Source: Halorhodospira halophila SL1
Lineage (GTDB): Bacteria; Pseudomonadota; Gammaproteobacteria; Nitrococcales; Halorhodospiraceae
Assembly (NCBI RefSeq): GCF_000015585.1
Contig: NC_008789.1
Coordinates: 1,620,001-1,652,000, forward strand
Reading direction: 5' to 3'
Length of the DNA stretch: 32,000 nt
Part shown: positions 8,950 to 30,442 of the stretch, piece by piece
How the letters are laid out: every line of letters begins with the position of its first letter
Position numbering within the stretch: position 1 is the first letter of the stretch
Program-made: the position numbers and the translations under genes
The notes under the pieces: model-generated
Databases searched by the model: none
What the model saw: only the letters and a program-made list of their open reading frames with translations
Told to the model about the DNA's origin: nothing

Positions 8950-9120
8950 CACATTGTTTTCGGAGCAACCCATGGGCCGCGCGAATTCATGGTTACCCAC
9001 GGGGAACAACTGAGGGCGGCCCAGACTAGCGGTTTGCGGAGGTTATCGCTCCTCGGTACTGTGACGACGGGCCGGGGGTATGATTCGCCCTGATGGGGCT
9101 TTTCCATGGAGGTGTCCAGA

Positions 9121-9765
9121 ATGAGCGAGGACATGAACGACAAGTCGACCAAGAAAACCTCGGAAACGAGCACCAAGAGCAGCACCACCAAATCCACGGG
9201 AAGCACGGCCAAGGCCGGCGCCACCAAGTCCGAGAGCGCCAAGTCCGAGGCTGCCAAGTCGGGCACGGTGGAGACCGCCGCTGAGCAGGGCAGTGCCAGC
9301 AAGGGCACCAGCAGCACGACCGGCAAGGCGAGCAGCTCCGCCTCGACCAGCAGCTCCACGGCCTCGGGCTCTGCGGCTTCCGGCTCCAGCAAGAGCAGCA
9401 GCGACAGCGGCGAGGCCTTCCTCGGCAATTCCGGGCTACCGCGTCACTTCGCCGCCGGTCTGTCCTATGTCGGCGGGCCCATTACGGGTGCCATCTTCCT
9501 GCTGCTCGATCGCGCCGACCCGTTCGTGCGTTTCCACGCCGCACAGTCGCTGGCGATTTCCGCCGTCATTGCCGTGATCTGGATCTGCGTGGCAATCCTC
9601 AACGCCGCCTTCGCCGGGATGCCCCTGGTGTTCTGGGTGGGTCTGATCGGCCTGCTGTTCATGGCCTTCAACGCGTTCCAGAGCAAGGACTGGGAGGTTC
9701 CGGTCCTCGGCGAGTACTCGCAGAAGCTCTCCGACAAGGTGTCGCCTGAGGACAAGACCGACTAA
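9121..9765 (+). CDS. membrane protein with Ser/Thr/Lys-rich disordered N-terminal region and DUF4870/Tic20-like C-terminal membrane domain
   Basis: The ATG at 9121 has GGAGG 8 nt upstream. The track's ATG at 9106 has no RBS. About 100 aa are low complexity (KSTKKTSETSTKSSTTKSTGSTAKAGATKSESAKSEAAKS...SSSASTSSSTASGSAASGSSKSSSDSG). They are followed by 'YVGGPITGAIFLLLDRADPFVRFHAAQSLAISAVIAVIW' and further TM helices. Confidence 0.65.
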   Translation: MSEDMNDKSTKKTSETSTKSSTTKSTGSTAKAGATKSESAKSEAAKSGTVETAAEQGSASKGTSSTTGKASSSASTSSSTASGSAASGSSKSSSDSGEAFLGNSGLPRHFAAGLSYVGGPITGAIFLLLDRADPFVRFHAAQSLAISAVIAVIWICVAILNAAFAGMPLVFWVGLIGLLFMAFNAFQSKDWEVPVLGEYSQKLSDKVSPEDKTD

Positions 9766-9800: not shown

Positions 9801-9848
9801 CCCGACTTGCCGGCCCCACCCCGAGCGGCTGGCAAGTCGGGTTTTTTG
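9801..9848 (+). terminator. rho-independent terminator downstream of the 9121-9765 gene
   Basis: A 15-bp GC-rich inverted repeat, cccgacttgccggcc (9801-9815) and ggctggcaagtcggg (9827-9841), with one mismatch. A TTTTTT run at 9842-9847 follows it directly. Confidence 0.8.
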
Positions 9849-9988
9849 TCCCCTGCCACTTCCCCCGCTCGAACCTCCACTACACTTGACTGGTGACGGT
9901 CCAGTATCGCAGCCACTGGCCAGCGTTTAGGTCGATATTCAGATCCGGTGGGATTTTTTCGAAAGGCGCGAGCCGCGGAGGTTGGCAA

Positions 9989-11521
9989 GTGGGTTTAGAG
10001 CAACTCTATCAGCACATTATCCAGCAGCTGCGCGCCTCCTGGCGGCGCCGGTGGTGGCTGATCCCGGTCGCGTGGGCGGTCTGCCTGGTCGGCTGGGCTT
10101 ACATCAACACCTTACCCGATGTCTATCAGTCTTCAAGCCGCGTCTACGTAAACTCTCAGACCGTGCTCGAACCCCTGTTACGCGGTATGACCGTCCGTCC
10201 GGACACAGAGCAGCGCGTCCGCATGATGACTGTAACCCTTCTCAGCAACGACAACCTCAGGGAGATCGCTCGCCAAGCGGATCTCGATGTCCTGCTCAAC
10301 CAGGATAATGAACAAGCGTTGATCGGCACCTTGCGCGGCGGCATTCAATTGGACGGTGGCCGGCGCGATAACATCTACACCATCGCCTTTTCCCACCGGG
10401 ATCCCGAGGTCGCCTATCGGGTCGTCCGCGAGACCTCCAATCTGTTCATGGAGCGCGGCCTTGGCGACTCGCGGGTTGATCTCGCCTCCTCGCAGACGTT
10501 CATCGAGCGACAGCTCCAACGTTACGCCAGTCAGCTGCAGAACAAGGAGGCTGAGCTTGAATCCTTCAAGCGTGAGAACCATTCGCTGCTCAGCGCTGGC
10601 GGCAACTATTACACCCGGCTGGAGCGCGCTCGCGACGCCCTTGAGCAGGCACAGCTCGAGCGGGACGAACACGCCCAACGTTTAGAAACTCTGCAGGCCA
10701 GGCTCGAAAAAGACAGACAATCCCCCATTGCCGAGGACGCGCATTTGAGTAACCCCCGGCTGGACCAACGGATCAGCCGGCTGGAATCCCAGCTCGATGA
10801 GATGCGGCGCCACTTCACGGATGCCCACCCGGACGTCGCCCAAACTCGACGCATCCTCAAGGAGCTTGAGGAGCGGCGCCGTGAAGAAACCCGCATGGCT
10901 CTCGCAGATCCCGCTCGGTCCGTCGAGGGCGTTGTCGGCAGCCCGCTCCGGTTGGCATTGGTTGACGCAGAAAGCCATGCTGCTTCGCTGGAAACCCGCG
11001 TTCAAGAGCATAAGCGGCGCGTGGAGAACATCGCCGCGCTTGTCGATCAGGTTCCTGCCATCGAATCCCGATTCAATGCCTTAAAGCGCGACCACGAGGT
11101 GCTGCAGCAAAGCTATCGCCAACTGCTGACCACCCGCGAGCGGGCCGCCATGACCGGGTCCGTCGAGACCGAGACGGCTGCCGTCGATTTCCGGGTCCTG
11201 GAGCCGCCGACACGGCCGAGTTCGCCGTCCGCACCCGATCGCCCCCTGCTTGCGAGCGGTGTCCTCCTGCTAGGCCTCGGCGCCGGCTCCGGACTGGCCT
11301 ACCTGCTCGCTCAGTTGCGCGGCACCGTCACCTCCACCGCACGCCTGGCGGAGATCACCCGTCGCCCCGTACTGGGCTCGGTCACCCGGGTCCCGACCCC
11401 GAACCGGCGGCGGCGTCAACGGCTCGAGCTCATGATCTTTGCAGGGATCCTCGGAACCCTCTTTGTGGCCTATCTGATGGTGTTGGCGTACTACGGCGGC
11501 GGGGGGTTGTGGCCGTTCTAG
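9989..11521 (+). CDS. PEP-CTERM-locus-type polysaccharide chain-length determinant (EpsF/Wzz-like PCP), orphan paralog without adjacent kinase
   Basis: Collinear over its full length with the EpsF at 28674-30218: shared 'LRA(S/T)WRRRWW..P.AW.VC..GWAYI..LPD.Y..SS.VYV', 'GMTVRPD.EQR', 'NLREIARQADLD', 'DPEVAYRVVR', 'LFMERGLGD', 'HPDVA.T.R.L', 'VDFRVL.PP', plus a C-terminal RRRR+TM. The start is placed at the GTG at 9989, which has GGAGG 7 nt upstream and aligns with the paralog's N-terminus. The track start at 9893 adds 32 unaligned residues. Confidence 0.8.
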   Translation: MGLEQLYQHIIQQLRASWRRRWWLIPVAWAVCLVGWAYINTLPDVYQSSSRVYVNSQTVLEPLLRGMTVRPDTEQRVRMMTVTLLSNDNLREIARQADLDVLLNQDNEQALIGTLRGGIQLDGGRRDNIYTIAFSHRDPEVAYRVVRETSNLFMERGLGDSRVDLASSQTFIERQLQRYASQLQNKEAELESFKRENHSLLSAGGNYYTRLERARDALEQAQLERDEHAQRLETLQARLEKDRQSPIAEDAHLSNPRLDQRISRLESQLDEMRRHFTDAHPDVAQTRRILKELEERRREETRMALADPARSVEGVVGSPLRLALVDAESHAASLETRVQEHKRRVENIAALVDQVPAIESRFNALKRDHEVLQQSYRQLLTTRERAAMTGSVETETAAVDFRVLEPPTRPSSPSAPDRPLLASGVLLLGLGAGSGLAYLLAQLRGTVTSTARLAEITRRPVLGSVTRVPTPNRRRRQRLELMIFAGILGTLFVAYLMVLAYYGGGGLWPF

Positions 11522-13263
11522 GCCAGGGTGCGGACGATCTGCCAGCTGTAATCGCGGGCCGGCCAGCGCAGGGGCTCAGGATCGCAGCCGGCCACGGCGC
11601 GACCCAGACTGCAATGGGCCTCGCCCCCCGCCGCCTCTCCGTCTAACGGAGCAGACGCCGAGGGGCACGGCGTCAAGGACCAGCCCCCCGGGTTCAACAC
11701 CCGTGCACCTGAGTCCGGCTGGCCCAACAAGGTCCAACGCGCAATCAGGTGACGGTTGTCCCCATCCCAGACCATCTCCACGCGCCAGCTGTGACCCGCC
11801 AGACGAGGCGGTGAGGCGCCCTGGCGCCGCTGCCAGGCACCACCGAGGAGCCGCCAATCGATGGCGTCCCGGATCCGTTCCCTCCAGGAGCCGGCGCGCG
11901 GCCGGCACAGCGCTACGGGGGCACCCTCGCCCCACCAACGCAGCCCCACAGCCGTCGATGCCCACCCGGTGCGTTCAAAAAGCAGGGGACCGTACAGCTC
12001 GCCCCCATCGAGCACCAGCGGCACCCACCCGGCCTGCCGCGGCTCGGCCAGCCAGTCGGATCGAGGGCGCCGCGTCGCGCTTGGAAGGACCGGCTGCCCC
12101 GCTACCTCCAGGTGAAAGGCCTGCCCCGCCGCCGATCGCAGATCCCCTTCGCCCCGGCTATAGCCCTGCACCGCCTGACCCTTGAGGTTCACACAGACGG
12201 TCCAGTCATCGCCATCGGCCCGCAGAAGCCCCGCCGCCCGGTCTTCCCGGGGCGCTCGCTCTGCCGAACCACCGAGATTGAACTCGCACACCGGTGCGCG
12301 ACCGGCGACCAGCGCCTCATCGCCGTCGGCCACCAGGCTGAGTAAGCCGGCCGTCCAAGCGTTGTAGACGCTCAAGTGCATATACCGGTCCCACCCCCCT
12401 TCAGCGCCGCTGCGACACGCCGGCGTCAGCCACAGAAGTCCATCCTCCCGCCTTTGGCGCTCCAGACGCTGGCGCAGGGCTTCGAGCAGCACCACCCCGG
12501 AGTGGCCCCTCTCCAGGCCATCGCCGCCGGACGACAAAACGCCGCCGAGCACCGCCATCAGGCAGGCGTCCCCGAAGAGGGCGTGATTGCTCCGTCCGAG
12601 GCCACCGCAATACCCCCCTCGCGTCGCTACCAGATCCAGCCAGGACCATCCGCGCTCGAGCAGGGCGCGGAGCCGCGGGTGATCGACCCGGCACACCGCC
12701 AGCCAGAGGCAGAGCAGCGCTTTCACATGGTAGGCCACCGGGGTCGCAACCCGACCACCGCTCCCAGCCGGAAAATCCACGAAGCCCCCGGCCGAGGTCA
12801 TCCAGCGCTCGGTCAGGGCAGCCAACCGTTCCGCGCGGCGTTGACGAAGAAACGGCGTCTCCGCCTCAAGGAGGCGAACCGTAGCGGCGAGCAGGGTCCA
12901 GTTGTTCGACGGATAGCGCCTGCGCAAGCGGCATCCGCGAAGCGCGCGGCGTACGCGATCCCGATCGGCCTGCTGCGCGCCTTCGCGCTCAAGCCGACTC
13001 TCCAGCAGCCGAAGCCCAAGGCGATTGAAGGGCTCGTGGCCGCGCTGCGCAACCGGTAGCGCCGTCCAGGCATCCAGCGGCCGCCGCCAATCCCCGAACT
13101 GCGGGTGCACGTGTAGTGCGAGTGCGGCGAAGATCGGCGCATAATGATCGGTCGGTGTCCAGCCGTCCAGGGTGTCCGGCTCGCGCAACCGGCCGTCCGG
13201 CTCCAGATAGGCAGCCAGACCGCCAACCCAAGGCTCCAGCCAAGCCCGCTCGATCACCGGCAC
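11518..13263 (-). CDS. hypothetical soluble protein, last gene of the eps operon (possibly alpha/alpha-toroid plus beta-sandwich, heparinase II/III-like; function uncertain)
   Basis: 581-aa ORF whose GTG start overlaps the upstream GT4 gene by 10 nt. No TM helices and no signal peptide are evident. The N-terminal half is helical and Trp/Leu-rich (e.g. 'SNHALFGDACLMAVLGG', 'YMHLSVYNAWTAGLLSL'). The C-terminal half is beta-like ('TVCVNLKGQAVQGYS', 'FHLEVAGQPVLPS'). The coding call is solid; the functional call is weak. Confidence 0.55.
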   Translation of the reverse strand: MPVIERAWLEPWVGGLAAYLEPDGRLREPDTLDGWTPTDHYAPIFAALALHVHPQFGDWRRPLDAWTALPVAQRGHEPFNRLGLRLLESRLEREGAQQADRDRVRRALRGCRLRRRYPSNNWTLLAATVRLLEAETPFLRQRRAERLAALTERWMTSAGGFVDFPAGSGGRVATPVAYHVKALLCLWLAVCRVDHPRLRALLERGWSWLDLVATRGGYCGGLGRSNHALFGDACLMAVLGGVLSSGGDGLERGHSGVVLLEALRQRLERQRREDGLLWLTPACRSGAEGGWDRYMHLSVYNAWTAGLLSLVADGDEALVAGRAPVCEFNLGGSAERAPREDRAAGLLRADGDDWTVCVNLKGQAVQGYSRGEGDLRSAAGQAFHLEVAGQPVLPSATRRPRSDWLAEPRQAGWVPLVLDGGELYGPLLFERTGWASTAVGLRWWGEGAPVALCRPRAGSWRERIRDAIDWRLLGGAWQRRQGASPPRLAGHSWRVEMVWDGDNRHLIARWTLLGQPDSGARVLNPGGWSLTPCPSASAPLDGEAAGGEAHCSLGRAVAGCDPEPLRWPARDYSWQIVRTLA

Positions 13264-14531
13264 GGACCCTCCCCGCCCCCGCCGGCAGGCCGACGCGCAC
13301 CCTGCCCGGCGCCGTCAGCGGCGGCCTCGAGCTTGTCCACCAAGGAGGGGATCCGGGTCTGCCAGGCGTTCGCCTGCGCGTAGTCCAGGATCACCTGCCG
13401 ATCCCAGTCATACGCCAGGGCCTCAACAATGGCCCGGCGCAGCGCCTCCGTATCCCCGAACGGCACCAGCGTCCCGAGCTGGTCGTGAGCGATCACCTCG
13501 GCGTTACCCCCGACATCGGTGGTCACCGTAGGCAGCCCGCAGGCGGCCGCCTCGAGGAAGACATTCGCCCACCCTTCGAAACGGGTGGGGAGCACGAAAA
13601 GGTCCGCCGCCGCGTAGTAAAAGCGAAGGCGCTCCGAGGCCACCGCACCGGCAAAGTGCACACGCTCCGCCACCCCCAGATCTTTTGCCAGATCCCGCAG
13701 GCGCTGTTCGTCATTGCCGTCGGGGCTCCCCCCTCCCACAGCCAGGTAGTGGAGGTCGCCGATCTGCTCGTCCAGGGACGGCATCAGCTCGATCACCCGA
13801 TGAAACCCCTTGCGCTCGTTCAGCGTCCCGACCGTAATCAACACTTGGGCACGCTCCGGGATCCCGAGCGCTCGCCGGCAGGCCATCCGATCCTCAGGCC
13901 CGAATAGCGCCAGGTTGATCCCGTTCGGAACGACCTCCACGGACCGCTGCGGCTCCATCCCCAGCGCCACACTGCGCAGCGACTCCGAAACCGAGAAGAC
14001 CCGCGCGGCATGGCGTAGCGCTCGCCGCGCCAGGAAACGGCGCACCCGGGTGCGCGAGATCCGCACGATGGTCCCCCGCAGGGTCACCGTGTAAGGGCAG
14101 CCCAGCCACCAAGCGGCGAGCCAGGCGGCCACCCCGTCCGGGTAGATGAAATGCGCGTCGAGCAAATCGAGCTGACCCCTTCGGCGCAGCCGCCGCAGGG
14201 TGGGCAACGCCCCGAGGGCCTGGAACAGACCGTCGAGGCTTTTCAGCACACCCGGCAGGCAGAGGAAACGCGGGTGGTAGACGGTCGTCCCGGCTTGTTC
14301 CTCGCAATACGCCACAGAGGGCCGATACCACGGCCTCCAGCGCCGGACGATACCCTCCCCCGGAAACCAAGGTACCGGTGCCACCACAACCACCGGCAGG
14401 GAATCGGCCACCCGGGTCATACGCTCGCGCACGAAGACCCCGAAGGTGGGCTGCGCCTCGTTGGGGTAAACGCGGGTGAAGACCACCACGCGCGGCCCTT
14501 GCCGGCGATCCGATACTTGGCCGCCCGTCAC
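13254..14531 (-). CDS. GT4-family (GT-B, retaining) glycosyltransferase
   Basis: 425 aa, with a GTG start 2 nt after the upstream gene's stop. The C-terminal 'LFVLPTRFEGWANVFLEAAACGLPTVTTDVGGNAEVI' is the EX7E glycosyltransferase group-1 signature. Confidence 0.8.
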   Translation of the reverse strand: MTGGQVSDRRQGPRVVVFTRVYPNEAQPTFGVFVRERMTRVADSLPVVVVAPVPWFPGEGIVRRWRPWYRPSVAYCEEQAGTTVYHPRFLCLPGVLKSLDGLFQALGALPTLRRLRRRGQLDLLDAHFIYPDGVAAWLAAWWLGCPYTVTLRGTIVRISRTRVRRFLARRALRHAARVFSVSESLRSVALGMEPQRSVEVVPNGINLALFGPEDRMACRRALGIPERAQVLITVGTLNERKGFHRVIELMPSLDEQIGDLHYLAVGGGSPDGNDEQRLRDLAKDLGVAERVHFAGAVASERLRFYYAAADLFVLPTRFEGWANVFLEAAACGLPTVTTDVGGNAEVIAHDQLGTLVPFGDTEALRRAIVEALAYDWDRQVILDYAQANAWQTRIPSLVDKLEAAADGAGQGARRPAGGGGEGPCR

Positions 14532-14533
14532 GG

Positions 14534-15781
14534 CTACGACACCCCCTCGGGAACGCGCCGACCGTTAGCAGCCTCGGCCGCCGTGATCACGCGTCGTGCA
14601 TTCTCGAGCCAGGTGTAGCCGTGCTGGTGGATCCGGTGGGCGCCGTTCCCGGCCAGGGTCTCTCGGGCCGCAGGGTCTTCGAGCAGTTCGACCAGGCGGT
14701 CCGCAAGGGCCTGCCAGTTGTTGGGCGGGAAGAGGCGTGCGGTCACCCCGTCCTCGACGACTTCGCGGATATTGGGCCGATCCGGGGCAACCACCGCTCG
14801 GCCGACACCCAGATACTCGAAGAGCTTGATCGGTGAGGCGTAGGCGGTCACGTCGGGCTGCACGGCAACATCCAAGGCAGCGATGTGTGCCGGGATCTCC
14901 GAGCGCTCGACCGGCCCAGTGAAGACCACCCGCTTGGTAATCCCCAGCGCTTCGGCCTGTCGCTGCAGCGCCGGTACCGCGGGGCCGTCGCCAACAATCA
15001 ACAACCGCGCCGCACTCCCGCCGTGCAGCCGCGGCGCCATCGCCTCCAGCAACCCATCCACGCCGTGCCATGGGCGGATCCAGCCGACGAAGCCCACCAC
15101 CTGGCAGCCCGTCAGCCCGTAGCGTGCCCGGATGGCATCGCCATCGACCCCGGGATGGAAGACCGAGCCGTCCACCCCGTTGGGCAACACCAGCAGCCGC
15201 CCTTCCGGCACGCCACGCTCGATAAAGATCCGCGCCATGGCGTGACTAACCACCACCGTGCGGGTTGCCGATCGACAGAGCCAGTCTTCGATCCACTGCG
15301 CCGCCCGGCGCCAGACCAGCCCCCCGTGGGCCTCAAGCTCGAGGCTGAGCGGCGCATTGACCTCGAGGATGAAGGGGCGACGGATCAGCCGGGCCACCAA
15401 CAGTCCCGCGAAGGAGAACAGCGAATACCGTTCGTAGATCAGATCGGGGCGCCGTGCCAGCACACGCGCGAGGAGCAGGGCGAACGCCGGGCCGTTGTAG
15501 GCCAGTGCCAGCAGCTCATAGAGCCAGTGCGGGATCGCCCGACCGGCCAGGGTCGGACCGGCTTCGGCGGCCGCTTCCCGTTGCCCGGCCCCCTCCCCCT
15601 GCCCATCCTTTTCGATGCGCTCAGAGCGCGACCCTCGTGCTCTTCCCGGTGTTCGCCGCAACGATCGCGGCTCGACGATATCCACGGTATGGCCAAGCGC
15701 GCGAAACGCATCGACCAGCGCGCGGATGTGCACGCCCTGCGCGTCCTCGGCCCGGGTGCGATGGTGGTAGAGAATCCTCAC
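14534..15781 (-). CDS. GT4-family glycosyltransferase
   Basis: 415 aa. The GTG start forms a GTGA overlap with the stop of the upstream PaaK-like gene. Signatures: 'MRILYHHRTRAEDAQGVHIRALVDAFRALGH', the nucleotide-sugar-binding half 'VGFVGWIRPWHGVDGLLEA', and 'IKLFEYLGVGRAVVAPD'. Confidence 0.75.
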   Translation of the reverse strand: MRILYHHRTRAEDAQGVHIRALVDAFRALGHTVDIVEPRSLRRTPGRARGSRSERIEKDGQGEGAGQREAAAEAGPTLAGRAIPHWLYELLALAYNGPAFALLLARVLARRPDLIYERYSLFSFAGLLVARLIRRPFILEVNAPLSLELEAHGGLVWRRAAQWIEDWLCRSATRTVVVSHAMARIFIERGVPEGRLLVLPNGVDGSVFHPGVDGDAIRARYGLTGCQVVGFVGWIRPWHGVDGLLEAMAPRLHGGSAARLLIVGDGPAVPALQRQAEALGITKRVVFTGPVERSEIPAHIAALDVAVQPDVTAYASPIKLFEYLGVGRAVVAPDRPNIREVVEDGVTARLFPPNNWQALADRLVELLEDPAARETLAGNGAHRIHQHGYTWLENARRVITAAEAANGRRVPEGVS

Positions 15782-17091
15782 GGCTCAAGCGCCTCGCTTT
15801 CCACCCAGCGATACTTCCCGGACGCACTCGGCGGTATCACGGAAACCCGCTCGAAACGCACCGGCACCTCCATCCCGAGGGTCCGACGCAGGCCCTCTGC
15901 CACCTGACGCGCCTCGGCCTCCCCCCAATCGGCATCGGCAACCACCTGGATATCCAGGCTCCGGTCCGTTCGCTGCACAAGCCGGTATTGCACCACCTGC
16001 GGCACTTCCCGGAGCACATAGTTCGCCGCTGAGCCGTGGATCCGACGTCCCTCCGCCCCCACGAGGAAATCATTGCGACGCCCCTCTAACCGGTCGAGCA
16101 CCGGCAGCGGCGAGCCGCAGGGACAGGCTCCAGCGCTGACCCGGCCTCGATCCCCGACGCGGTAGCGGATCAGGGGCATGCCGAAACCGTCCAGGTTGGT
16201 GATCAGCAGATCGCCCACCCCGGAGGCGTCCGGCGCGTCCACCTCCACCCATACGTGCTCGGCGGCGATGTGCAGTCGCCCCTCACGACACTCATGGGCG
16301 GTCAGCCCGGCATCCCTAGACCCGTACTCATTGGCCACCGGCGGCGCTCCCAAGCCCGCTGTAATCGCCTCGCGCAGCTGCGGATAGAGCATCTCGGAGG
16401 TGCAGACGACCAAATCGGGTCGCCACCCCCCTAGCAGTCGCGGGTGATCCGCCGCATGGCGTGCCACCCGGGCGATGACCGTCGGGTAGCCGTAAACAAG
16501 GTGGGGGCGGAACCGGCCGAGGAAGCGCAAATAAGCCTCCAACCGATCCGGGCTCAGATCGTGCGCCGAACACAGCGCCTGGTTGAGCAGATACTGATCC
16601 TTGAACCGGCGAAACCGCGACGACTTGTTCAACTCGACGGGGGATCCCCAGAAATCCACTTGCCGATCCCCTGGGCGCACCCCGAACCAAGTGCGAAAAC
16701 GCAGCTTATGGGCGTTATGCCGGGTCTCCTTGACCGGATCGGTCCAGAACGTGAGCGGACGCCCCGAAGATCCGCCGGTGGACGAGGGCAGGAGCCTGCC
16801 CGGGTAGTGATCGCTACACAGCGCATCGCCGTGCTCGCGCACGGTATCCCGCTCGAGCACTGGGAAATCGGTGACCTCCAGGGCCCCGTTAGCGGGCAGC
16901 CGCGCCCGATAGAACGGCACCCGATCCCGACAGTGCTCCAGGAGGGCCGCCAGCTTCTCGCGACGCAGCCGGTACACCGCGTCGGGGTGCTGCTCGCCCC
17001 GACGCAGGGCCGCCAGTTCGGCGAGGGTTGCCCGGCCACGCAGCCGCTCATGGGCGGGCAACAGGAGCCCACGGACCAGCCAGGGGGTCAC
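15778..17091 (-). CDS. phenylacetate-CoA-ligase/CapK-like adenylate-forming enzyme
   Basis: The P-loop-like motif 'SSTGGSSGRPLTFW', plus 'EMLYPQLREAI', 'ANEYGSRDAG', 'GMPLIRYRVGDRG' and the C-terminal 'SASGKYRWV' fit the PaaK/F390-synthetase/CapK family. The start is placed at the GTG at 17091, which forms a GTGA overlap with the AsnB stop. The track start at 17145 would overlap asnB by 58 nt. Confidence 0.7.
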   Translation of the reverse strand: MTPWLVRGLLLPAHERLRGRATLAELAALRRGEQHPDAVYRLRREKLAALLEHCRDRVPFYRARLPANGALEVTDFPVLERDTVREHGDALCSDHYPGRLLPSSTGGSSGRPLTFWTDPVKETRHNAHKLRFRTWFGVRPGDRQVDFWGSPVELNKSSRFRRFKDQYLLNQALCSAHDLSPDRLEAYLRFLGRFRPHLVYGYPTVIARVARHAADHPRLLGGWRPDLVVCTSEMLYPQLREAITAGLGAPPVANEYGSRDAGLTAHECREGRLHIAAEHVWVEVDAPDASGVGDLLITNLDGFGMPLIRYRVGDRGRVSAGACPCGSPLPVLDRLEGRRNDFLVGAEGRRIHGSAANYVLREVPQVVQYRLVQRTDRSLDIQVVADADWGEAEARQVAEGLRRTLGMEVPVRFERVSVIPPSASGKYRWVESEALEP

Positions 17092-19001
17092 CGCGCCCCC
17101 TCCACACAGCGGCGCAGGAAGGACTCCAGCATCAGCAGGGCCCACAGCGGACGGGCGTGATTGCTTCGCCCGGACTGGTGTTCATCGACCAGGGTGCGCA
17201 ACCGGCTCGCATCGAAGTAACCGCTGTCCATCAGCCGTTTGCCGAGCACGGCTTCGCGGAGCCGCTGGCGCAGCGGTCCGCGAAACCACTCCGCGATGGG
17301 CATATTGAACCCCTGCTTGGTGCGGTAGAGGACATCGTGGGGCAGGCGATCCTCGAAGGCCCGCTTGAGGAGCCACTTGCCCTGCTGATTGCGGACCTTG
17401 AGATCCGTAGGCAACCGCCCCGCCCACTCCATGAACCGGTGATCGAGCAGCGGCACCCGCACCTCCAGCCCGTGGGCCATGCTTGCCCGATCCACCTTGG
17501 TCAGGATGTCGCCCGGCAACCAGGTTTTGAGATCCAGGTACTGCACAAAGGCGAGCGGGTCGTGGGTCGGTGCCTCGGCGGCGTGGCCACGCAGCACCTC
17601 GGCGGCGTGGTACCCCTGCAGTTCGCGCTGAAACCGCTGCGAGAACAGCCGGGCGCGCTGATCGTCATCGACCACCGCGACGCTGCGCAGATACCCGGCC
17701 ACCGGATCCGCCGCCAGCGCCTGGAAAGTCGCCTTGCCACGCAGGTACTTAGGTGCCCAGTCGGCCTTCGGGTACCAGCGGGCCAGCGACCCGAACAGAC
17801 CTCGTCGAAGGCCATCCGGTAGCCGCCCCCGCAGCCGGGCCTCCCGCTGATAACCGCGGTAGCGTCGGTACCCCGCCAGCACCTCATCGCCCCCGTCCCC
17901 GGATAGCGCCACCGTAACGTGCTGCCGCGCGATCCGGCTGACCTCGTAGGTAGGAAGAGCCGACGGGTCGGCGAAGGGCTCGTCGAAGAGCAGCGCCAAC
18001 TCGTCGATCAGGTCGAAACGCTCCGAATCCACCTTGTGGATGTGGTGGTTGAGGCCCAGGTGCCCGGCCACCTTCCCGGCGTGCTCCGCCTCGTCGTAAT
18101 GCGGATCGCGGAAGGCAATGGAGCACGCATCCACCGGACGGTCACTGAGTTCGCTCATCAACGCCACCACGACACTGGAGTCGACCCCGCCGGAGAGGAA
18201 AGCGCCCAGAGGGACCTCGGCCTCAAGACGGATGTCCACCGCCTCGCGTAGCTGCGCGACCAACGCCTCGCCGGCCTGCTCCGCCGACAACGAGCGATCT
18301 GAGCTGCTATCGAACGTAGCGTCCCAATACTGTCGCGGGGGCCCCATCGGTTCACCGCGGCGTAGCAATAACGTATGCCCCGGCGGCAGCTTGCGTACGG
18401 CCGCAAAGATGCTCCGCGGATCCGGCACATAACCGTAGGCGAAGTAATCCTCGATCGCCCTCGGATCGAGGTCTCTCGGCACCTCGGCGCAGGCCAGCAG
18501 GGCCTTGATCTCGGACGCGAACAGCACCCGTCCGTCGGGGAGTTCGGCGTAGCACAGGGGCTTGATCCCGAGCCGATCGCGGGCCAGGAATAACGCCTGC
18601 TCATTGCGATCCCAGACCGCCAGGCTGAACATCCCGCGGAAGTGCTCGACGCAACGCTCGCCCCACTCCTCCCAGGCGTGCACAATGACCTCGGTATCAC
18701 AGCGCGTGGCGAAGTCGTGCCCGCGCTGCTCCAGTGTCGACCGCAGCTCGGCATGGTTGTAGATCTCGCCGTTGAAGACGGTGATCACCCGGCCATCTTC
18801 ATTGGCAAGCGGCTGCTGCCCCCCCGCGCGATCGATGATTGACAAGCGACGGTGGCCGAGCCCGACCCCGGCCTCCTGATGGATACTCGAATCGTCCGGT
18901 CCCCGGTGGGCCAGGCTCTCGGTCATGCGCCGCAAAAGCGCCTCGTCGCCGGCGCGCCCGCCTTCCAGGGCGTGATCCAGGATTCCGACTAACCCGCACA
19001 C
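17088..19001 (-). CDS. glutamine-hydrolysing asparagine synthase family amidotransferase (XrtA/PEP-CTERM-system-associated type)
   Basis: 637 aa. It begins (f)Met-Cys 'MCGLVGILD', the class-II glutaminase nucleophile. Further signatures are 'HRGPDD', 'RLSIID', and the PP-loop 'GAFLSGGVDSSVVVALM'. Its position right after the stp2 glycosyltransferase and XrtA matches the conserved locus order. Confidence 0.85.
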   Translation of the reverse strand: MCGLVGILDHALEGGRAGDEALLRRMTESLAHRGPDDSSIHQEAGVGLGHRRLSIIDRAGGQQPLANEDGRVITVFNGEIYNHAELRSTLEQRGHDFATRCDTEVIVHAWEEWGERCVEHFRGMFSLAVWDRNEQALFLARDRLGIKPLCYAELPDGRVLFASEIKALLACAEVPRDLDPRAIEDYFAYGYVPDPRSIFAAVRKLPPGHTLLLRRGEPMGPPRQYWDATFDSSSDRSLSAEQAGEALVAQLREAVDIRLEAEVPLGAFLSGGVDSSVVVALMSELSDRPVDACSIAFRDPHYDEAEHAGKVAGHLGLNHHIHKVDSERFDLIDELALLFDEPFADPSALPTYEVSRIARQHVTVALSGDGGDEVLAGYRRYRGYQREARLRGRLPDGLRRGLFGSLARWYPKADWAPKYLRGKATFQALAADPVAGYLRSVAVVDDDQRARLFSQRFQRELQGYHAAEVLRGHAAEAPTHDPLAFVQYLDLKTWLPGDILTKVDRASMAHGLEVRVPLLDHRFMEWAGRLPTDLKVRNQQGKWLLKRAFEDRLPHDVLYRTKQGFNMPIAEWFRGPLRQRLREAVLGKRLMDSGYFDASRLRTLVDEHQSGRSNHARPLWALLMLESFLRRCVEGAR

Positions 19002-19007
19002 TGGCAG

Positions 19008-20207
19008 TTATCCCTTCCTTGCCACGGAGCCGCTCCGCGCCGGTGGCGCCAATAGCTCGCGATAAAGACTTTCGTAAGCCCCGACCATGGCCTCGACCGA
19101 GAAATGCTCCACCGCTCGCCGGCGCCCTGCAGCCCCTTCCAACGACCGACGGTGCGGCTCCTGAAGGTAGCCGGCCAGCCCATCACACAGCTGCTCGGGA
19201 TCACCCGCAGGCACCAGCGTCCCGGTCACCCCCTCCTCAACCAGCTCCGGCAACCCGCCGACCCGCGATGCCACCACCGGAAGGCCACTGGCCATGGCCT
19301 CAAGGACCGTCACCGGGATCCCTTCGGCGAGGGAGGGCAACGCAAAGACATCGAACGCCGCCAACCGGGTCGCGACATCGGTGCAGTTGCCCGTGAGTTC
19401 CACGGCATCGGCCACATCCAACTCCGCCGCCAACGCCCGAAGCGACTGCTCTTCAGGACCACTGCCAATCACTACCAATCGCAGATCCCCGCGCTTGGCC
19501 GAGAACCGCTCGCGAAGACGGGCGAAAGCCCGGATAAGCGTCGCCTGGTCCTTCACCGCCGTCAGCCGCCCGACGGTGCCAATCACCAGGACGCCCCCTT
19601 GCCCCGAATCCTCCTCCGATGATCGCCTCGCGGCCCGATAACGCTTTGTATCGACGCCGTTGTAGATGTGGCGCACCCGGCGCTTGGGGATCCGCACCCG
19701 CTCGGTGAGATACTCGGCCAAGTGGCGGGAGACCGTCACGTGCCGTTGCACCCAGGGACTGAGGGCCCGCCGCAGCCAGCGGTACCGCCAGCGGGTCCCG
19801 TCGAGATCGGCCATGTCCCAACCGTGCTCCGCGTGGACGCGGCCCGGCACGCCGCTCAGCGCGGCCACCGGCTGGCACTCCAAAGCGGCCAGGTTCGACG
19901 TATGCACCACATCCGGCCGCAGCTGACACAACAACCGATAAAGACGCCACTGGGTACCCAACCCCCACCCGGGGGGCTTGTGGAGGGCATGGACGGGCAC
20001 TCCATCCGGTAGCCGGCGACGGAACGCTTCATCGTAATCCGCCAGACAGACGACGACATGCCGGAAACCATGGTGGACGCTGCCGCGGACCAGCTCGACG
20101 AGGATGTTCTCCAGCCCCCCGACATCCAGACGATAGAGGATATGGGCAATCAGCGGGCGCGAGCCCTGCCCATCCCGGGGGCGCCGGCGATCATGGTCGA
20201 TCGTCAA
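19008..20207 (-). CDS. glycosyltransferase, PEP-CTERM/EpsH1-system-associated 'stp2' type (GT4)
   Basis: 399 aa. 'RPLIAHILYRLDVGGLENILVELV' at the N-terminus and 'VFALPSLAEGIPVTVLEAMASGLPVVASRVGGLPELV' (EX7E) are present. The TTG start makes a TTGA overlap with the XrtA stop. It lies immediately downstream of xrtA, as in other XrtA loci. Confidence 0.8.
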   Translation of the reverse strand: MTIDHDRRRPRDGQGSRPLIAHILYRLDVGGLENILVELVRGSVHHGFRHVVVCLADYDEAFRRRLPDGVPVHALHKPPGWGLGTQWRLYRLLCQLRPDVVHTSNLAALECQPVAALSGVPGRVHAEHGWDMADLDGTRWRYRWLRRALSPWVQRHVTVSRHLAEYLTERVRIPKRRVRHIYNGVDTKRYRAARRSSEEDSGQGGVLVIGTVGRLTAVKDQATLIRAFARLRERFSAKRGDLRLVVIGSGPEEQSLRALAAELDVADAVELTGNCTDVATRLAAFDVFALPSLAEGIPVTVLEAMASGLPVVASRVGGLPELVEEGVTGTLVPAGDPEQLCDGLAGYLQEPHRRSLEGAAGRRRAVEHFSVEAMVGAYESLYRELLAPPARSGSVARKG

Positions 20208-21784
20208 CGTCCCCGAACCTCCTCCAGGGTCCCCAACAACTCGGGCAGCGCAGCCTCCGCAAAACGACGCAGGGCCGGCTCAACCTCCTCTGGATCATCG
20301 GGATAAAGCGCATAGAGCACCACCAGCGCTGCATCGTCGCGCCCCCCGAGCAAGCGGGACAGCGACTCCCGCGCCTTCACTTCGTGGGGGCTGGTGGTCA
20401 GCCGGTCCGTCACCCAGTACCAACGCCAGGCCAGGATCTGTCGATTCGGCCCGGTGAGCTCGAATCGTGCCGGGCGGGTCCAATCATCGATCTCCGCCCG
20501 CCCGGCCGAGCGTTGCCGCCAGGCGTCCCGATCCCGGCCGGCCATGGTATTATCCCAAGTGATCATATTCCCGTGCCGGAATTGCTCCCGGTAGTAGCCC
20601 ACGTAGACCCCCACCGGAACCCCTTGCCCATCGACATAGTGCCGGTGGAAGGCCGCGCGCGCGTTGCGATACCCCGGCTCCCAGGGATCGGCCTCGATCG
20701 CCTCCCAGTCATTGAGGGGCAGCTCCGCCTCCTCCAACCCGGCAACAGGGCCGAGATCCCGCTGATTCATCCATCCGGCGTAGAGCGGCCCGGAAGCGAC
20801 CAGTACTCCCCCCGTCAACGCCACCCCGGCAACCGCAGCAACCGAACGCGATCCAAGCCCTGTACTGTCGCTAAGCCGCTCCGCCATGCCACCGCCGCCT
20901 GGACCGGGCGCTGCCCCCTCGGAGATCGGCCGATCCTCGCGCCAGTAGGTCCCGATCCAGAACATCAGCGCGATCACCGCACCGAAGAACACCCAGCCAT
21001 AGATCAGATGATCGACCCCCGCGGCCAACTCCATGCCACTGAGATGTCCGATCATCACGATCGCATAGGCGCGCAGACCGTTGGCGAGGATCGGCACCAG
21101 GAACGAGAAGGCCACGAAAACCAGCCGGCGCATCCAGCTTCGGTAAACCAGGTAGGCGTACAGCGTGCCCAGGGCGACGGTAGCGATGAGGTAACGCACG
21201 CCACTGCACGCCTCGACCACGGACCAGCGGCCGGTCGGCAACTCGAAGTTCAGTCCTTCGCGATAGACCGGCACGCCGGTTTGCTGCACTGCCCATACCG
21301 TGAAGTCGGCAGTCCAGTCCATCAGCGGCGGGACCAGGAACTCACCGAATGGGACGGCAGAGATCAGGTAGGCCAGCGGGAAGAGCAGCGTCCAGGCGAC
21401 GGCGTTGCCCAGGCTCAGCCAGACGACAGCCGGGATCAGGAGCACCGCCGCGAAGTGGCGCACGGAGTCGACGTCCACCAACGCGCCGAGCACCCAGAGC
21501 AGGACCAGTCCGGCGACCGGCACCAGGGCCAGTGGTTGCACTCTGGGCTGTTGATCCGCCAGGGGGTGACGCAGCCGATAAACCAGGAAGAGGACGATGG
21601 GCACGATCAGGAAACCGTGGGCGAAGGTCTCTGAGCGTGACCAAATACCCACAATAGCCTGATAGGTTGGCAGGAAGGCGATCGCCAGCACCACGCCGAG
21701 CAGTGCCAATGCCGCCCCGTGCAGGTACCACGGCGCTCGATCCCCGAGCCCACCGCCGACAATCGCATCCGGGTTACTGGCCAT
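20204..21784 (-). CDS. xrtA: exosortase A (XrtA) fused to a C-terminal EpsI-family domain
   Basis: The N-terminal polytopic membrane domain carries 'WSRSETFAHGFLIVP' and the catalytic-Cys motif 'EACSGVRYLIATVALG', followed by 'ANGLRAYAIVMIGH'. After one further TM helix, about 200 aa ('YVGYYREQFRHGNMITWDN', 'WRWYWVTDRLTTSPHEVKA') look like EpsI. The ATG at 21784 has GAGG 6 nt upstream; the GTG at 21796 is an alternative start. Confidence 0.85.
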   Translation of the reverse strand: MASNPDAIVGGGLGDRAPWYLHGAALALLGVVLAIAFLPTYQAIVGIWSRSETFAHGFLIVPIVLFLVYRLRHPLADQQPRVQPLALVPVAGLVLLWVLGALVDVDSVRHFAAVLLIPAVVWLSLGNAVAWTLLFPLAYLISAVPFGEFLVPPLMDWTADFTVWAVQQTGVPVYREGLNFELPTGRWSVVEACSGVRYLIATVALGTLYAYLVYRSWMRRLVFVAFSFLVPILANGLRAYAIVMIGHLSGMELAAGVDHLIYGWVFFGAVIALMFWIGTYWREDRPISEGAAPGPGGGGMAERLSDSTGLGSRSVAAVAGVALTGGVLVASGPLYAGWMNQRDLGPVAGLEEAELPLNDWEAIEADPWEPGYRNARAAFHRHYVDGQGVPVGVYVGYYREQFRHGNMITWDNTMAGRDRDAWRQRSAGRAEIDDWTRPARFELTGPNRQILAWRWYWVTDRLTTSPHEVKARESLSRLLGGRDDAALVVLYALYPDDPEEVEPALRRFAEAALPELLGTLEEVRGR

Positions 21785-23027
21785 CAGCTGCCTCACTCAA
21801 CGCGTGTCCCTCATCGTCATCAATCCGTTCGGTCGTGCCAGCGAGCAGCCGGTCGAGCCGGCCAAGATGCCGGGCCCAACTGTAGTCCTGCACGACGCGC
21901 CTTCGCGCAGCTGCCCCCATACCATCGCCCCCGTCCAGGCACCGGCAGACCGCTTCGACCATTGCTTCCGGCTGCGCCTCGGCGCTTTCCACTTCCACCC
22001 CTAGGGCGACCTGCAGTCCTTCCAGGGCCTCCGGCGAAGCGACGATCGGCCGGCCGAGGGCCATCGCCTCGAGTACCTTGTTCTGGATCCCTCGGGCCAC
22101 ACGCAGCGGCGCCACGGCCACGGCTGCGTGACCAACCCAGGGGCGGACGTCGTCCACAAAGCCGGTGACGGTCACCCCGGGGCGGTTTGCCAGCGCAGCC
22201 ACTGCCGGCGTCGGCCGATTACCGACCACGTAGAACCGAGCCGCTGGCTCCCGGGCCCGGACCTGGGGAAAGGCCTCCTCAGCGAACCAGCAGGCCGCAT
22301 CGGCGTTCGGCCAATAATCCATGGCGCCCGTCAGGACCACCGGCCGCTCGTCGGCGGCGTAAGGGCTCGGCCCAAGAAGCCTCGGGTCGAAGTAGTCCGT
22401 ATCCACGCCGTTACTCATTGCCGAGACGCTTTGCGCCGACTCCGGCGCGAGACTCCGGAACGCCGCCGCCTCGTCCGTAGAAACAAACAAGCTGGCGTCG
22501 CTCGACGCCGCCAGGTGTCGTTCGTAGGCCAATAGCCGGCGTGCCTCGCGGGCAAAGACCGCCCGCAGGGGCCAGGGACGATGGCGCGCGTACTGACCCC
22601 ACTTATCGGAGTCGATGTCGACGAAATCCACCACCCGCAGTAGCGAAGGTGGCCGATCCGGCACGTACGGCCCCATCGACGAGGAGAAGCACATCGCGAC
22701 ATCGATTGGCTGCGCTTGGCACACCTGGCGAACCCACTGCGCCAGGTGCCGGTCCCGGTACCAGGGCAGGGTCAGCGGCTCTCCAGTGAGAAAACCGCCA
22801 AGCGCGCGCAGCTGCGCCCGCCGCCGCGGCAGTGGACGCGCGCACACGCTCGCGCAAACCGCTTCCAGGTCGGGGAGGAAACGCCAATCGTCCGGGTCAT
22901 CGACAAAGGTCCCGAGGTGGACCCGGTGGCGCTCCGTCAAGTGACGGAGGATATGGTAAGAGCGGATCTTATCGCCCTTGTTCGGCGGCCACGGCACGCG
23001 ATGCACCAGGAACAGGATCTCGGCCAC
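21774..23027 (-). CDS. glycosyltransferase, PEP-CTERM/EpsH1-system-associated 'stp1' type
   Basis: 417 aa. The N-terminus 'MAEILFLVHRVPWPPNKGDKIRSYHILRHL' is the highly characteristic start of this family. It sits directly upstream of xrtA and overlaps it by 11 nt. Confidence 0.85.
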   Translation of the reverse strand: MAEILFLVHRVPWPPNKGDKIRSYHILRHLTERHRVHLGTFVDDPDDWRFLPDLEAVCASVCARPLPRRRAQLRALGGFLTGEPLTLPWYRDRHLAQWVRQVCQAQPIDVAMCFSSSMGPYVPDRPPSLLRVVDFVDIDSDKWGQYARHRPWPLRAVFAREARRLLAYERHLAASSDASLFVSTDEAAAFRSLAPESAQSVSAMSNGVDTDYFDPRLLGPSPYAADERPVVLTGAMDYWPNADAACWFAEEAFPQVRAREPAARFYVVGNRPTPAVAALANRPGVTVTGFVDDVRPWVGHAAVAVAPLRVARGIQNKVLEAMALGRPIVASPEALEGLQVALGVEVESAEAQPEAMVEAVCRCLDGGDGMGAAARRRVVQDYSWARHLGRLDRLLAGTTERIDDDEGHALSEAADGQ

Positions 23028-23035
23028 GCTCCCTC

Positions 23036-24067
23036 CTACCCCAGACCCCGGACCACGATGGGTCCCAATCGATTCACCACCGAAAGCGGCAACCGCTGCC
23101 AGATGCGGATTGCTTGCCGGTACCGCGGATTGAGCGGATTGTGCTCGGGGATCGTGCTGCGCTTGTAGAGCTGGTATTCGTAGGCCAGCGGCTGCGGCTC
23201 GAACCCCCAGTTGCGCTTGAAGTGGTAGGCACCGGTCCCCTTCTTGCTCCGCCCGAAATCAAACAGCCGGTACCCCTCCTCACACCCCCGGCGCATCAAC
23301 TCCCAGTAGAGGAAATCGTAGCCCGCCACCTCGCGCGCCGCAGGCAATCCGCCGCCGTAATAGGGCAGAATCTCATCCCGGAAATAGAACGTCAGGACAC
23401 TCGTAACCGGCTTCCCGTCGTGGGACACCATCAGTACGCGGCAGTCGTCACCGAAGGTCTCCGCCAGTAGGTGGAAGTAACAGCGTGGAAAGACCGGCGT
23501 ACCCAGACGGTGGACACTTCGCGCATAGAGGTCGTGAAAGCGGTCGAGATCGGCCTCCCAGGTCGCTTCCAAACCGGCCTTGATCCCCTGGCGCACCATT
23601 CGCCGCTGCTTGCGCGGGATGGCTTGGAAGTTCGCGTCCTCGTCAGCCGCCAGGGATTTCCGGAAGGTGGCGTACAACGCATCCTGGCGCGGCCACTCCG
23701 TATGCACCGGCGCGCGGTGGCGATACTCCAGAAACTCTACACCCAGCGCCCGGGCACGCTCCTGAGCCGCATGGTCGAGCGCCTTCCGCGCCGATTCATC
23801 GGCAGCGACCACCCCGCCATAGACGCAGAAGGGGGTGGAAATCAGGGCATCGCTGAACAACCAGCTCTTGCTGCGTGCCAGCGGAAGCACCCCCACGATC
23901 ACCCCGTCACGCTCGGCGTAGAGATACTCCGTTACGTGACCGAACGCCTCGCGCAGGACCCGCGCCCAGCCGCTGCGGTGGAAAAAGGTGGCCTCCGGCG
24001 ACTGCTGAACGAAAGCGTCCCAGCGGGCCTCGTCCGCCGCTTCCAGTCTCGCTACGCGTAGATCCAT
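23036..24067 (-). CDS. FemAB-family (GNAT-fold peptidyl/aminoacyl-transferase-like) protein, PEP-CTERM-system-associated
   Basis: 'WDAFVQQSPEATFFHRSGWARVL', a duplicated acyltransferase-like fold, and the C-terminal 'FDFGRSKKGTGAYHFKRNWGFEPQPLAYEY' match this family. The ATG at 24067 is preferred; the track's TTG at 24103 is an alternative. Confidence 0.8.
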   Translation of the reverse strand: MDLRVARLEAADEARWDAFVQQSPEATFFHRSGWARVLREAFGHVTEYLYAERDGVIVGVLPLARSKSWLFSDALISTPFCVYGGVVAADESARKALDHAAQERARALGVEFLEYRHRAPVHTEWPRQDALYATFRKSLAADEDANFQAIPRKQRRMVRQGIKAGLEATWEADLDRFHDLYARSVHRLGTPVFPRCYFHLLAETFGDDCRVLMVSHDGKPVTSVLTFYFRDEILPYYGGGLPAAREVAGYDFLYWELMRRGCEEGYRLFDFGRSKKGTGAYHFKRNWGFEPQPLAYEYQLYKRSTIPEHNPLNPRYRQAIRIWQRLPLSVVNRLGPIVVRGLG

Positions 24068-24115
24068 TCCTGTACCGCTTCTCCCTGTCTGCTGGCGCTC
24101 CAAAGCGGCTAACTT

Positions 24116-25021: not shown

Positions 25022-25071
25022 GGCCCATCCCCCTTTGGGGCCTTTCCGCCCCCGTCATCCCCACGCGGCAG

Positions 25072-26187: not shown

Positions 26188-26194
26188 AGGCGGC

Positions 26195-30426: not shown

Positions 30427-30442
30427 TGGCACGGCACATGCA
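30427..30442 (+). promoter_or_regulatory. candidate sigma-54 (RpoN) -24/-12 promoter upstream of the PilZ gene
   Basis: TGGCACGgcacATGCA compared with the consensus TGGCACG-N4-TTGCW. The -24 element matches 7/7 and the -12 element 4/5. The invariant GG (30428-29) and GC (30440-41) have exactly the canonical 12-nt offset. The site is intergenic, about 110 nt upstream of the GTG at 30550. Confidence 0.5.

Follow-up and report, generated by a model that had tools for sequence, protein, structure and literature searches.

Why does the XrtA exopolysaccharide (EPS) locus of Halorhodospira halophila SL1 carry two polysaccharide co-polymerase (PCP) genes, one at each end of its operon, and a single gene for a tyrosine autokinase? 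The question arises from a 32,000-nucleotide stretch of the SL1 genome (contig NC_008789.1, positions 1,620,001 to 1,652,000), which is referred to here as the window and to which all coordinates apply. Many environmental bacteria rely on XrtA/PEP-CTERM loci to form flocs and biofilm matrix, and to our knowledge the setting of polymer length in such loci has not been studied. The three genes at the centre of the question, with the two co-polymerases named copy A and copy B, are:

9989-11521, plus strand: copy A, XrtA-system polysaccharide co-polymerase without a kinase, TIGR03007, 510 amino acids
28674-30218, minus strand: copy B, canonical XrtA-system co-polymerase and first gene of the operon, TIGR03007, 514 amino acids
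27660-28658, minus strand: XrtA-associated bacterial tyrosine (BY)-type autokinase, TIGR03018 (257 bits, cut-off 231)

We report that copy A is a true PEP-CTERM/XrtA-type co-polymerase paralog without a kinase of its own. It is a regular member of a known and annotated family; what is new is the combination of two co-polymerases with one kinase, which is polymorphic among close strains. Our preferred reading, to which we give a probability of roughly 0.5, is that copy A is a functional accessory PCP-2-like co-polymerase of the XrtA cassette in the H. halophila group, acting beside copy B for a second polymer state.

The predicted copy A and copy B proteins align end to end with 53% identity, 71% positives and 14 gap positions. 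Both exceed the curated cut-off (278.85 bits) of TIGR03007, the XrtA system polysaccharide chain length determinant family, with copy A (468 bits; residues 9-501 matching profile positions 2-496 of 498) scoring above copy B (431.6 bits). The first-pass annotation had described the two as full-length, collinear paralogs that flank a 14-gene operon in inverted orientation, and this description agrees with our data. The names EpsF and EpsG that it used for the co-polymerases and the kinase have to be replaced by TIGR03007 and TIGR03018, since scores against TIGR03017 (EpsF) were only 47.8 bits for copy A and 55.5 bits for copy B (cut-off 422.75), and the kinase reached 59 bits against TIGR03029 (EpsG; cut-off 314). 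Copy A also matches the Pfam family Wzz (PF02706) at 28.0 bits (gathering score 25.5) and reaches 24.1 bits against GNVR (PF13807; gathering score 27.7), and copy B behaves alike. Both the profile score and the phylogenetic trees (see below) place copy A inside TIGR03007 and not in another, non-PEP-CTERM Wzz family. The locus itself has XrtA: an XrtA-EpsI exosortase is encoded in the window, and throughout Halorhodospira copy A and the operon are inherited together. The H. halophila NCBI protein P0001 shares 100% identity with copy A, and copy B and the kinase are encoded on the same contig as P0001. For copy B there are two alternative starts, 30218 and an ATG at 30209, the latter three codons later and used in the NCBI model (P0026 aligns to copy B from residue 4); copy B may begin at 30209, giving a protein that starts with MEQ like every canonical family member and the NCBI model.

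The identity between the two copies varies along the protein. It is 64-69% in the first transmembrane (TM) helix and the periplasmic base, 73% in TM2, 44-49% in the coils, 52% in the cytoplasmic loop and 31% in TM3. Hence, the earlier suggestion that the coiled coils have diverged more than the termini holds for the N-terminal part, and fails at the C-terminus where TM3 is the most diverged segment.

The kinase gene is located directly downstream of copy B and is the only kinase gene in the window (a single tblastn hit), so the claim that a kinase follows copy B alone was borne out. The predicted protein has a Walker A motif (GEGKT) and a C-terminal tyrosine cluster (GYSGYGYGYGYGYGKY), and its homologues in the PDB are VpsO, BceF, Etk and CapB, with alignments that start at kinase residues 113-117. 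The top 120 kinase homologues included no second TIGR03018-type kinase from the contig carrying copies A and B; a distant BY-kinase may be encoded elsewhere.

To place this arrangement among other loci, 80 metagenomic TIGR03007 loci were collected using the family alignment as query, of which 69 were informative (at least 700 bp downstream of the co-polymerase gene). The kinase gene lies directly downstream of the co-polymerase gene in 66 of these 69. Among the three exceptions, two (L015 and L016) are copy A orthologues, and the third (L090, 989-6154) is a distant XrtA-like locus encoding an exosortase, a TIGR03027 exporter, a TIGR03007 co-polymerase and an outer-membrane protein, with no kinase gene between the latter two. 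Copy A likewise departs from the typical TIGR03007 context, in which a TIGR03018 kinase is next downstream: its neighbour is a convergent gene for a 581-amino-acid protein. A second co-polymerase gene, in tandem or nearby, was not found within +/-6 kb in any of the 80 loci. Among close homologues on long contigs only H. halophila contributed two proteins from one contig (word-based, clustered search), and a scan of genome contigs with copy A returned one true relative, L001.

Copy A occupies the same slot, between the gene for a DUF4870 protein and the 581-amino-acid gene, in four lineages: the window, L001, L003 (identical to L016) and L015. In a second species, represented by the metagenome-assembled genome (MAG) C1M08_22, a single 52-kb contig carries the two copies on either side of the operon, and both are also present in GCA_003552625.1; copy B orthologues followed by the kinase gene were found in L005, L013, L014 and L095. 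Translation of copy A is predicted to start at a GTG:

9977-9991, plus strand: Shine-Dalgarno sequence GGAGG (9977-9981) and GTG start of copy A, the GTG being kept in three orthologues

In L001 there is an in-frame TAG directly upstream of this GTG. Relative to canonical TIGR03007 proteins the termini of copy A differ by the GTG start, a two-residue N-terminal extension and a Gly-rich C-terminal tail of approximately 6 residues.

Pairwise ratios of nonsynonymous to synonymous divergence (dN/dS) are 0.12-0.18 for copy A and 0.09-0.14 for copy B; these ratios are rough, as dS is near saturation. At positions that are at least 85% conserved in the other 35 family members, the copy A clade has three fixed changes (L3, H228 and F276, one of which reflects the different position of the start codon) and the copy B clade has two. 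Judged from these substitution patterns copy A is under purifying selection and probably functional, and a pseudogene is ruled out by the dN/dS values and the retained family-conserved residues. A related possibility is that copy A was left behind by locus exchange, is redundant and lacks a distinct role, and is in the course of being lost. In keeping with this, its presence varies among close relatives (L008 is without it) and its nonsynonymous divergence is approximately 1.7 times that of copy B (dN 0.243 and 0.143, respectively, in the pair SL1 and GCA_003552625.1). However, the frame is intact in four lineages at 68-77% identity, the dN/dS values are low, and nearly all family-conserved residues, the start codon and the terminator architecture upstream of the gene have been kept, which makes this possibility very improbable.

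If copy A is maintained, does it belong to the XrtA locus or to something else? Its left flank encodes an M20 deacylase, a CocE-type hydrolase, an ATP-grasp ligase, a trypsin-like protease, a 642-amino-acid protein without assigned function, a cyclopropane-fatty-acid (CFA) synthase, a cyclic nucleotide (cNMP)-binding protein and the DUF4870 protein, and no polysaccharide genes are found among these. The features nearest to copy A are:

9106-9765, plus strand: gene for a DUF4870/MamF_MmsF-like membrane protein (Pfam), whose 3' end is the left boundary of the cassette
9804-9848, plus strand: Rho-independent terminator of the DUF4870 gene, a hairpin of -31.6 kcal/mol followed by a T-run

The DUF4870 protein has an N-terminal region of approximately 110 residues that is of low complexity and rich in Ser, Thr, Ala and Lys. 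An equivalent hairpin with a T-run is present in L001 and L003, and given the terminator at 9804-9848 copy A would be transcriptionally isolated from the left flank.

Comparison with other Halorhodospira loci provides insight into where the cassette ends. L008, from a Halorhodospira assembly, has the gene order of the window, with no gene between the DUF4870 and 581-amino-acid genes. Its left-flank proteins are 81-92% identical to those of the window (except the protease, 62%, and the ATP-grasp ligase, 78%) and are thus closer than those of L001 (70-86%), whereas its operon proteins are only 50-69% identical to those of the window, about as distant as those of Thioalkalivibrio. The same discordance is seen between L015, which has copy A, and L008, which does not: the DUF4870 and cNMP-binding proteins are 99-100% identical and the operon proteins 49-69%, and at the DNA level an identity of approximately 99% extends as far as the last codons of the DUF4870 gene, beyond which the two are unrelated. 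Copy A itself is 77% (L001), 72% (L015) and 68% (L003) identical to the copy in the window, a pattern that follows the operon and not the flank. Copy A hence tracks the operon and is swapped together with it between near-identical backgrounds, and it therefore belongs to the EPS cassette. As judged from these sequence comparisons, the XrtA locus with copy A at its edge behaves like a capsule or O-antigen cassette that is replaced by recombination in the flanks. At least three deeply divergent XrtA operon types are present in Halorhodospira.

These data bear on several alternatives. That copy A is a stray neighbour of the operon is ruled out by the shared divergence and by its presence or absence switching with the cassette. 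A separate polysaccharide locus that extends leftward and owns copy A, raised at the outset as an objection, is likewise ruled out, as the flanking genes are unrelated to polysaccharides and have a discordant evolutionary history. Copy A could also serve another polysaccharide pathway encoded elsewhere and adjoin the XrtA operon by chance; it is a separate, convergent transcription unit, and the window is without an exporter, a polymerase and a priming transferase, so other loci must exist. Yet its divergence follows the XrtA cassette and not the flank, it comes and goes with that cassette, and it outscores copy B on the XrtA-specific model, and we consider such a role improbable.

How copy A arose was addressed with neighbour-joining trees of 38 close family members (200 bootstraps). 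Clade A and clade B were each monophyletic in 100% of the replicates; copy A was never recovered as sister to copy B (0%) and grouped with P0005 in 86.5%. P0005 is encoded in another organism (locus L004) and occupies the canonical slot directly upstream of the kinase gene; this organism is not a close Halorhodospira, its flanking genes being 38-56% identical to those of L095. At the DNA level no inverted repeat linking copies A and B was detected with a 12-nucleotide seed, and the proportion of synonymous differences (pS) between them is 0.66. A recent inverted duplication or gene conversion is thus ruled out, and the choice between an ancient paralog and a recent duplication, for which a phylogeny had been called for, falls against the latter. 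Given the grouping with P0005 and the lack of a DNA repeat, copy A is on the sequence evidence an old paralog or a xenolog, and transfer as well as duplication followed by loss fit the data.

What copy A does is approached through its predicted structure. Hydropathy divides the protein as follows:

Copy A residues 24-42: predicted TM1
Copy A residues 419-443: predicted TM2
Copy A residues 444-477: predicted cytoplasmic loop
Copy A residues 478-505: predicted TM3

The AlphaFold2 model (pLDDT 76.7) shows TM1, an alpha/beta base, long antiparallel helices, TM2, a short cytoplasmic helix/loop and a third helix (471-503). Foldseek searches with this model gave a probability of 1.00 to Wzc, WzzE, FepE and KpsE with TM-scores of approximately 0.3, which are low because the extended monomer conformations differ, and the model thus supports a PCP superfamily fold for copy A. 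By sequence, the best relatives with solved structures are PslE (E=1e-27) and Wzc (1e-15), and no Wzz or FepE chain was found at E<=1 in the search of solved structures. The profile alignment to PslE and Wzc spans the periplasmic helices, TM2 and the juxtamembrane linker ('lrgtvastkqLaeltgrpvlgsvsrv'). With 510 amino acids and the PCP-2 proteins PslE and Wzc as best solved relatives, copy A does not belong with the PCP-1 proteins (Wzz/FepE).

The segment that follows TM2 in copy A is homologous to the activator region of Wzc and CapA, as in CapA-like PCP-2b proteins, and its RPVLG core is invariant in all copy A orthologues. In the CapA/CapB system the kinase activator consists of the last 30-50 modulator residues, and the terminal or penultimate Phe of the free CapA C-terminus contacts the nucleotide (PMC3795738). 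The first-pass annotation had pointed to a short basic segment between the last two TM helices of both copies as such an activator. Both quoted stretches, RVPTPNRRRRQR and RVRTPAHRRRRR, are indeed found between the second and third hydrophobic segments, and the segment is kept in both copies; its role as a CapA-type kinase activator is weakened, as the poly-Arg stretch is a family-wide feature adjoining TM3 for which a positive-inside topology signal is the simpler explanation. The CapA-like element in copy A would rather be LAEITRRPVLGSVTRV, upstream of the poly-Arg stretch. Since this homologous loop is kept, kinase docking is plausible, and copy A can probably still dock the single autokinase.

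One may then ask whether copies A and B compete for the single autokinase through the cytoplasmic loop, such that the A:B ratio determines its activation state and gives a bimodal or switchable polymer length. In its favour, one kinase gene is present in the window and the homologue search described above gave no second one from the same contig; the loop with its invariant RPVLG is found in all copy A orthologues and aligns to the PslE/Wzc juxtamembrane linker; and there is a precedent for cross-activation, since the non-adjacent and non-cognate CapA1 activates CapB2 better than the cognate CapA2 does (PMC3795738). Against it, the loop is 64-70% identical among copy A orthologues compared to 76-82% among those of copy B, the cytoplasmic and membrane parts of copy A being significantly less conserved (see below); a third TM helix tethers the segment, while the C-terminus of CapA is free; the poly-Arg stretch fits a topology signal; and another, distant BY-kinase may be encoded elsewhere in the genome. 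Competition for the kinase is in our view possible though doubtful, and a strict form of this model is weakened by the TM3-closed loop and the weaker constraint on the cytoplasmic parts of copy A.

Conversely, copy A might act independently of a kinase in a Wzz-like (PCP-1) manner, that is as a passive periplasmic cage or ruler on the polymerase for which control by phosphorylation is no longer needed. There is no adjacent kinase gene, and the cytoplasmic constraint appears relaxed while the periplasmic base is the best-conserved part of copy A (82-87% identity among copy A orthologues, compared to 79-81% for copy B); L090 furthermore represents a TIGR03007 gene without an adjacent kinase gene in another lineage. 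However, the juxtamembrane loop and TM3 have been retained and are still under purifying selection, and by sequence copy A is closest to the PCP-2 proteins PslE and Wzc and not to Wzz, which makes kinase independence unlikely.

The reading of copy A as an accessory co-polymerase would involve the following steps. Copy A would have a promoter of its own, preceded by a strong terminator, and its transcription would converge on the operon. A candidate promoter element is located between the terminator and the start codon:

9880-9886, plus strand: candidate -10 box of the copy A promoter, CTACACT, weak

In the raw sequences, -10-like counterparts are present at a similar distance past the terminator in L001 (CTATACT) and L003 (CTATAAT), and the MAFFT alignment shifts the L003 box by a few columns. 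With its own promoter, the terminator and the convergent orientation, the level of copy A could be set independently of the 14-gene operon. The protein would insert through its three membrane helices and build an oligomeric periplasmic cage similar to those of Wzc and PslE. It would then engage the polymerisation and export machinery used by copy B, either as homo-oligomers that replace copy B or as mixed A/B rings, and by analogy the outcome would be a second polymer length or export mode, as two Wzz paralogs result in two O-antigen lengths; competing WzzB, Wzz-pHS2 and FepE give bimodal O-antigen (PMC12004945). Copy A keeps the RPVLG loop, the equivalent of which contacts the kinase domain in Wzc, PslE and CapA, and its coupling to the kinase is likely looser than that of copy B because its membrane and cytoplasmic parts are less constrained.

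Some of our observations weigh against this reading of copy A. SL1 and GCA_003552625.1 are the one genome pair in which both copies are certain. In this pair the overall identity is 68% for copy A and 78% for copy B, and for the N-terminus, TM1, cytoplasmic loop and TM3 taken together it is 62% for copy A and 87% for copy B (p=8e-5), compared to 69% and 75% for the periplasmic parts (p=0.06); a second pair (P0002 for copy A and P0022 for copy B, possibly from different MAGs) showed a non-significant trend only. The contacts of copy A with membrane and cytoplasmic partners may thus be relaxed or different, and the weaker constraint, as far as can be judged from the sequences, argues against a kinase partnership as tight as that of copy B. 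The existence of L008 without copy A means that copy A is dispensable for an XrtA system as such. The promoter upstream of copy A is a weak -10-like match, and a scan with the sigma-70 consensus gave no full match. The window is without a Wza-type exporter (TIGR03027), a priming sugar transferase, a Wzy-like polymerase and a flippase. Finally, we found no relevant literature on PEP-CTERM/XrtA chain-length proteins, or on EPS or exosortase of H. halophila.

Comparison with known systems helps to delimit the arrangement. Canonical TIGR03007 proteins such as copy B share with copy A the three hydrophobic segments, the Wzz N-terminal domain, the long helical periplasmic region, the RPVLG loop, the poly-Arg stretch before TM3 and the location in an XrtA locus. 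They differ in that a kinase gene follows downstream, whereas copy A is found at the opposite end of the operon, convergent and as its own transcription unit, with faster evolution of its membrane and cytoplasmic parts. In the dual Wzz systems (WzzB together with Wzz-pHS2 or FepE in Shigella, Salmonella and E. coli) there are, as here, two co-polymerase paralogs of which one is encoded away from the main cluster; these share one polymerase, with two modal lengths as the outcome (PMC12004945), and the PCP fold is common to them and copy A. The Wzz proteins, however, are PCP-1 proteins of approximately 330-380 amino acids with two TM helices, no kinase partner and a role in O-antigen synthesis, in contrast to copy A, which is PCP-2-like, has approximately 510 amino acids, a kinase-linker homologue and a third TM helix, is located in an exosortase-linked EPS locus and is known here from its sequence.

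The S. aureus pairs CapA1/CapB1 and CapA2/CapB2 resemble the present case in that a membrane modulator is separate from a cytoplasmic BY-kinase, with a juxtamembrane activator segment in CapA. There, two kinases serve two modulators, while one kinase is seen here; the activating segment of CapA is a free C-terminus and not a loop closed by TM3, and its extracellular domain is much shorter. CapA-like proteins have two TM helices and a free cytoplasmic C-terminus, whereas a third helix is present in copy A, copy B and the whole family. PslE (P. aeruginosa, PDB 9v6l) and Wzc (E. coli, 7nhr and 9r62) are octameric PCP-2 assemblies and sequence relatives of copy A; they have a fused C-terminal kinase or kinase-like domain, whereas copy A ends in a TM helix. 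The EpsF/EpsG proteins (TIGR03017/TIGR03029, Methylobacillus-type) also combine a co-polymerase with a separate tyrosine kinase in an EPS cluster, but they constitute sister families whose profiles copies A and B and the kinase match far below the cut-offs.

The operon between the two copies consists of 14 genes on the minus strand, beginning with copy B and running to 11518. In order, it encodes copy B, the TIGR03018 kinase, a TIGR03016 outer-membrane protein, a TIGR03015 ATPase, a TIGR03006 deacetylase, a TIGR03019 FemAB-like protein, the stp1 glycosyltransferase, the XrtA-EpsI exosortase, the stp2 glycosyltransferase, a TIGR03108 amidotransferase, a CapK-like AMP ligase (in which a CapK_C domain was found), two GT4 glycosyltransferases and the 581-amino-acid hypothetical protein. 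Its main features are:

13254-27781, minus strand: XrtA operon core, from the TIGR03016 protein to the second GT4 glycosyltransferase, with NCBIfam matches above cut-off
20204-21796, minus strand: XrtA-EpsI exosortase, TIGR03109 (345 bits, cut-off 208)
11518-13263, minus strand: 581-amino-acid conserved hypothetical protein, last gene of the operon, convergent with copy A

Approximately 120 nucleotides (27660-27781) at the end of the kinase gene also fall within the open reading frame of the outer-membrane protein, the real start of which is probably later. For the 581-amino-acid protein no match was found in Pfam or NCBIfam; it has more than 120 homologues, including proteins from Thioalkalivibrio, Ectothiorhodospira, Thauera and Aromatoleum, and its gene is at the 3' end of the XrtA operon in all five loci inspected (L003 and L008-L011). 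Some UniRef entries call it heparinase II/III-like.

That copy A faces the end of the operon, as noted in the first-pass annotation, is evident from the stop codons, which overlap (TAG of copy A at 11519-11521, reverse-strand stop of the 581-amino-acid gene at 11518-11520). No terminator was found between the two genes, and the gap between them is approximately 8 nucleotides in L001 and approximately 50 in L003 and L015. From this layout the transcripts of copy A and the convergent operon should overlap as antisense RNA.

In other XrtA loci, e.g. L090, the exporter gene directly precedes the co-polymerase gene. Upstream of copy B in the window, and divergent from it, lies a gene for a PilZ-domain protein, a position that is kept in L014 and L095:

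30550-31119, plus strand: gene for a PilZ-domain protein
30427-30441, plus strand: sigma-54-like -24/-12 match TGGCACGGCACATGC, the only hit with one mismatch, approximately 110 bp upstream of the PilZ gene and facing it
From approximately 31310, plus strand, past the window end at 32000: PEP-CTERM/exosortase-system-associated acyltransferase, TIGR03694 (119 bits, cut-off 112)

No sigma-54 promoter was found upstream of copy A or copy B, and matches to the pattern are no commoner than in shuffled sequence. Together the PilZ gene and the sigma-54-like match hint at cyclic di-GMP (c-di-GMP) or RpoN-linked control of the locus. The acyltransferase region (approximately 31310-32000) has a G+C content of 0.54 compared to approximately 0.66 elsewhere. 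In MAG C1M08_22 a gene for an ISL3-family transposase (L095, 4121-5377) is located between the PilZ and exosortase-associated acyltransferase genes, beside the start of the operon.

A wider and more speculative scheme would treat the XrtA locus as a serotype-like cassette that is swapped at fixed flanks, where some types add an independently promoted co-polymerase. Two modulators would then share one kinase and one polymerase, a shift in the A:B ratio would move the EPS from one of two length or export states to the other, and antisense collision would possibly add control. Such a two-PCP/one-BY-kinase switch, if true, would be without a described precedent among exosortase-linked polysaccharides. 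In a more restrained perspective copy A would probably provide an additional means of setting polymer length, which varies a known theme only modestly, and the practical impact will stay small unless a phenotype can be demonstrated. The locus is a natural comparison, with two co-polymerases, one kinase and sister strains without the second copy, and thereby offers a simple genetic handle on whether PCP-2-type proteins act in pairs like Wzz proteins, on whether the kinase-contact loop is needed when the modulator gene is not beside the kinase gene, and on how EPS loci diversify by cassette exchange in haloalkaliphilic phototrophs.

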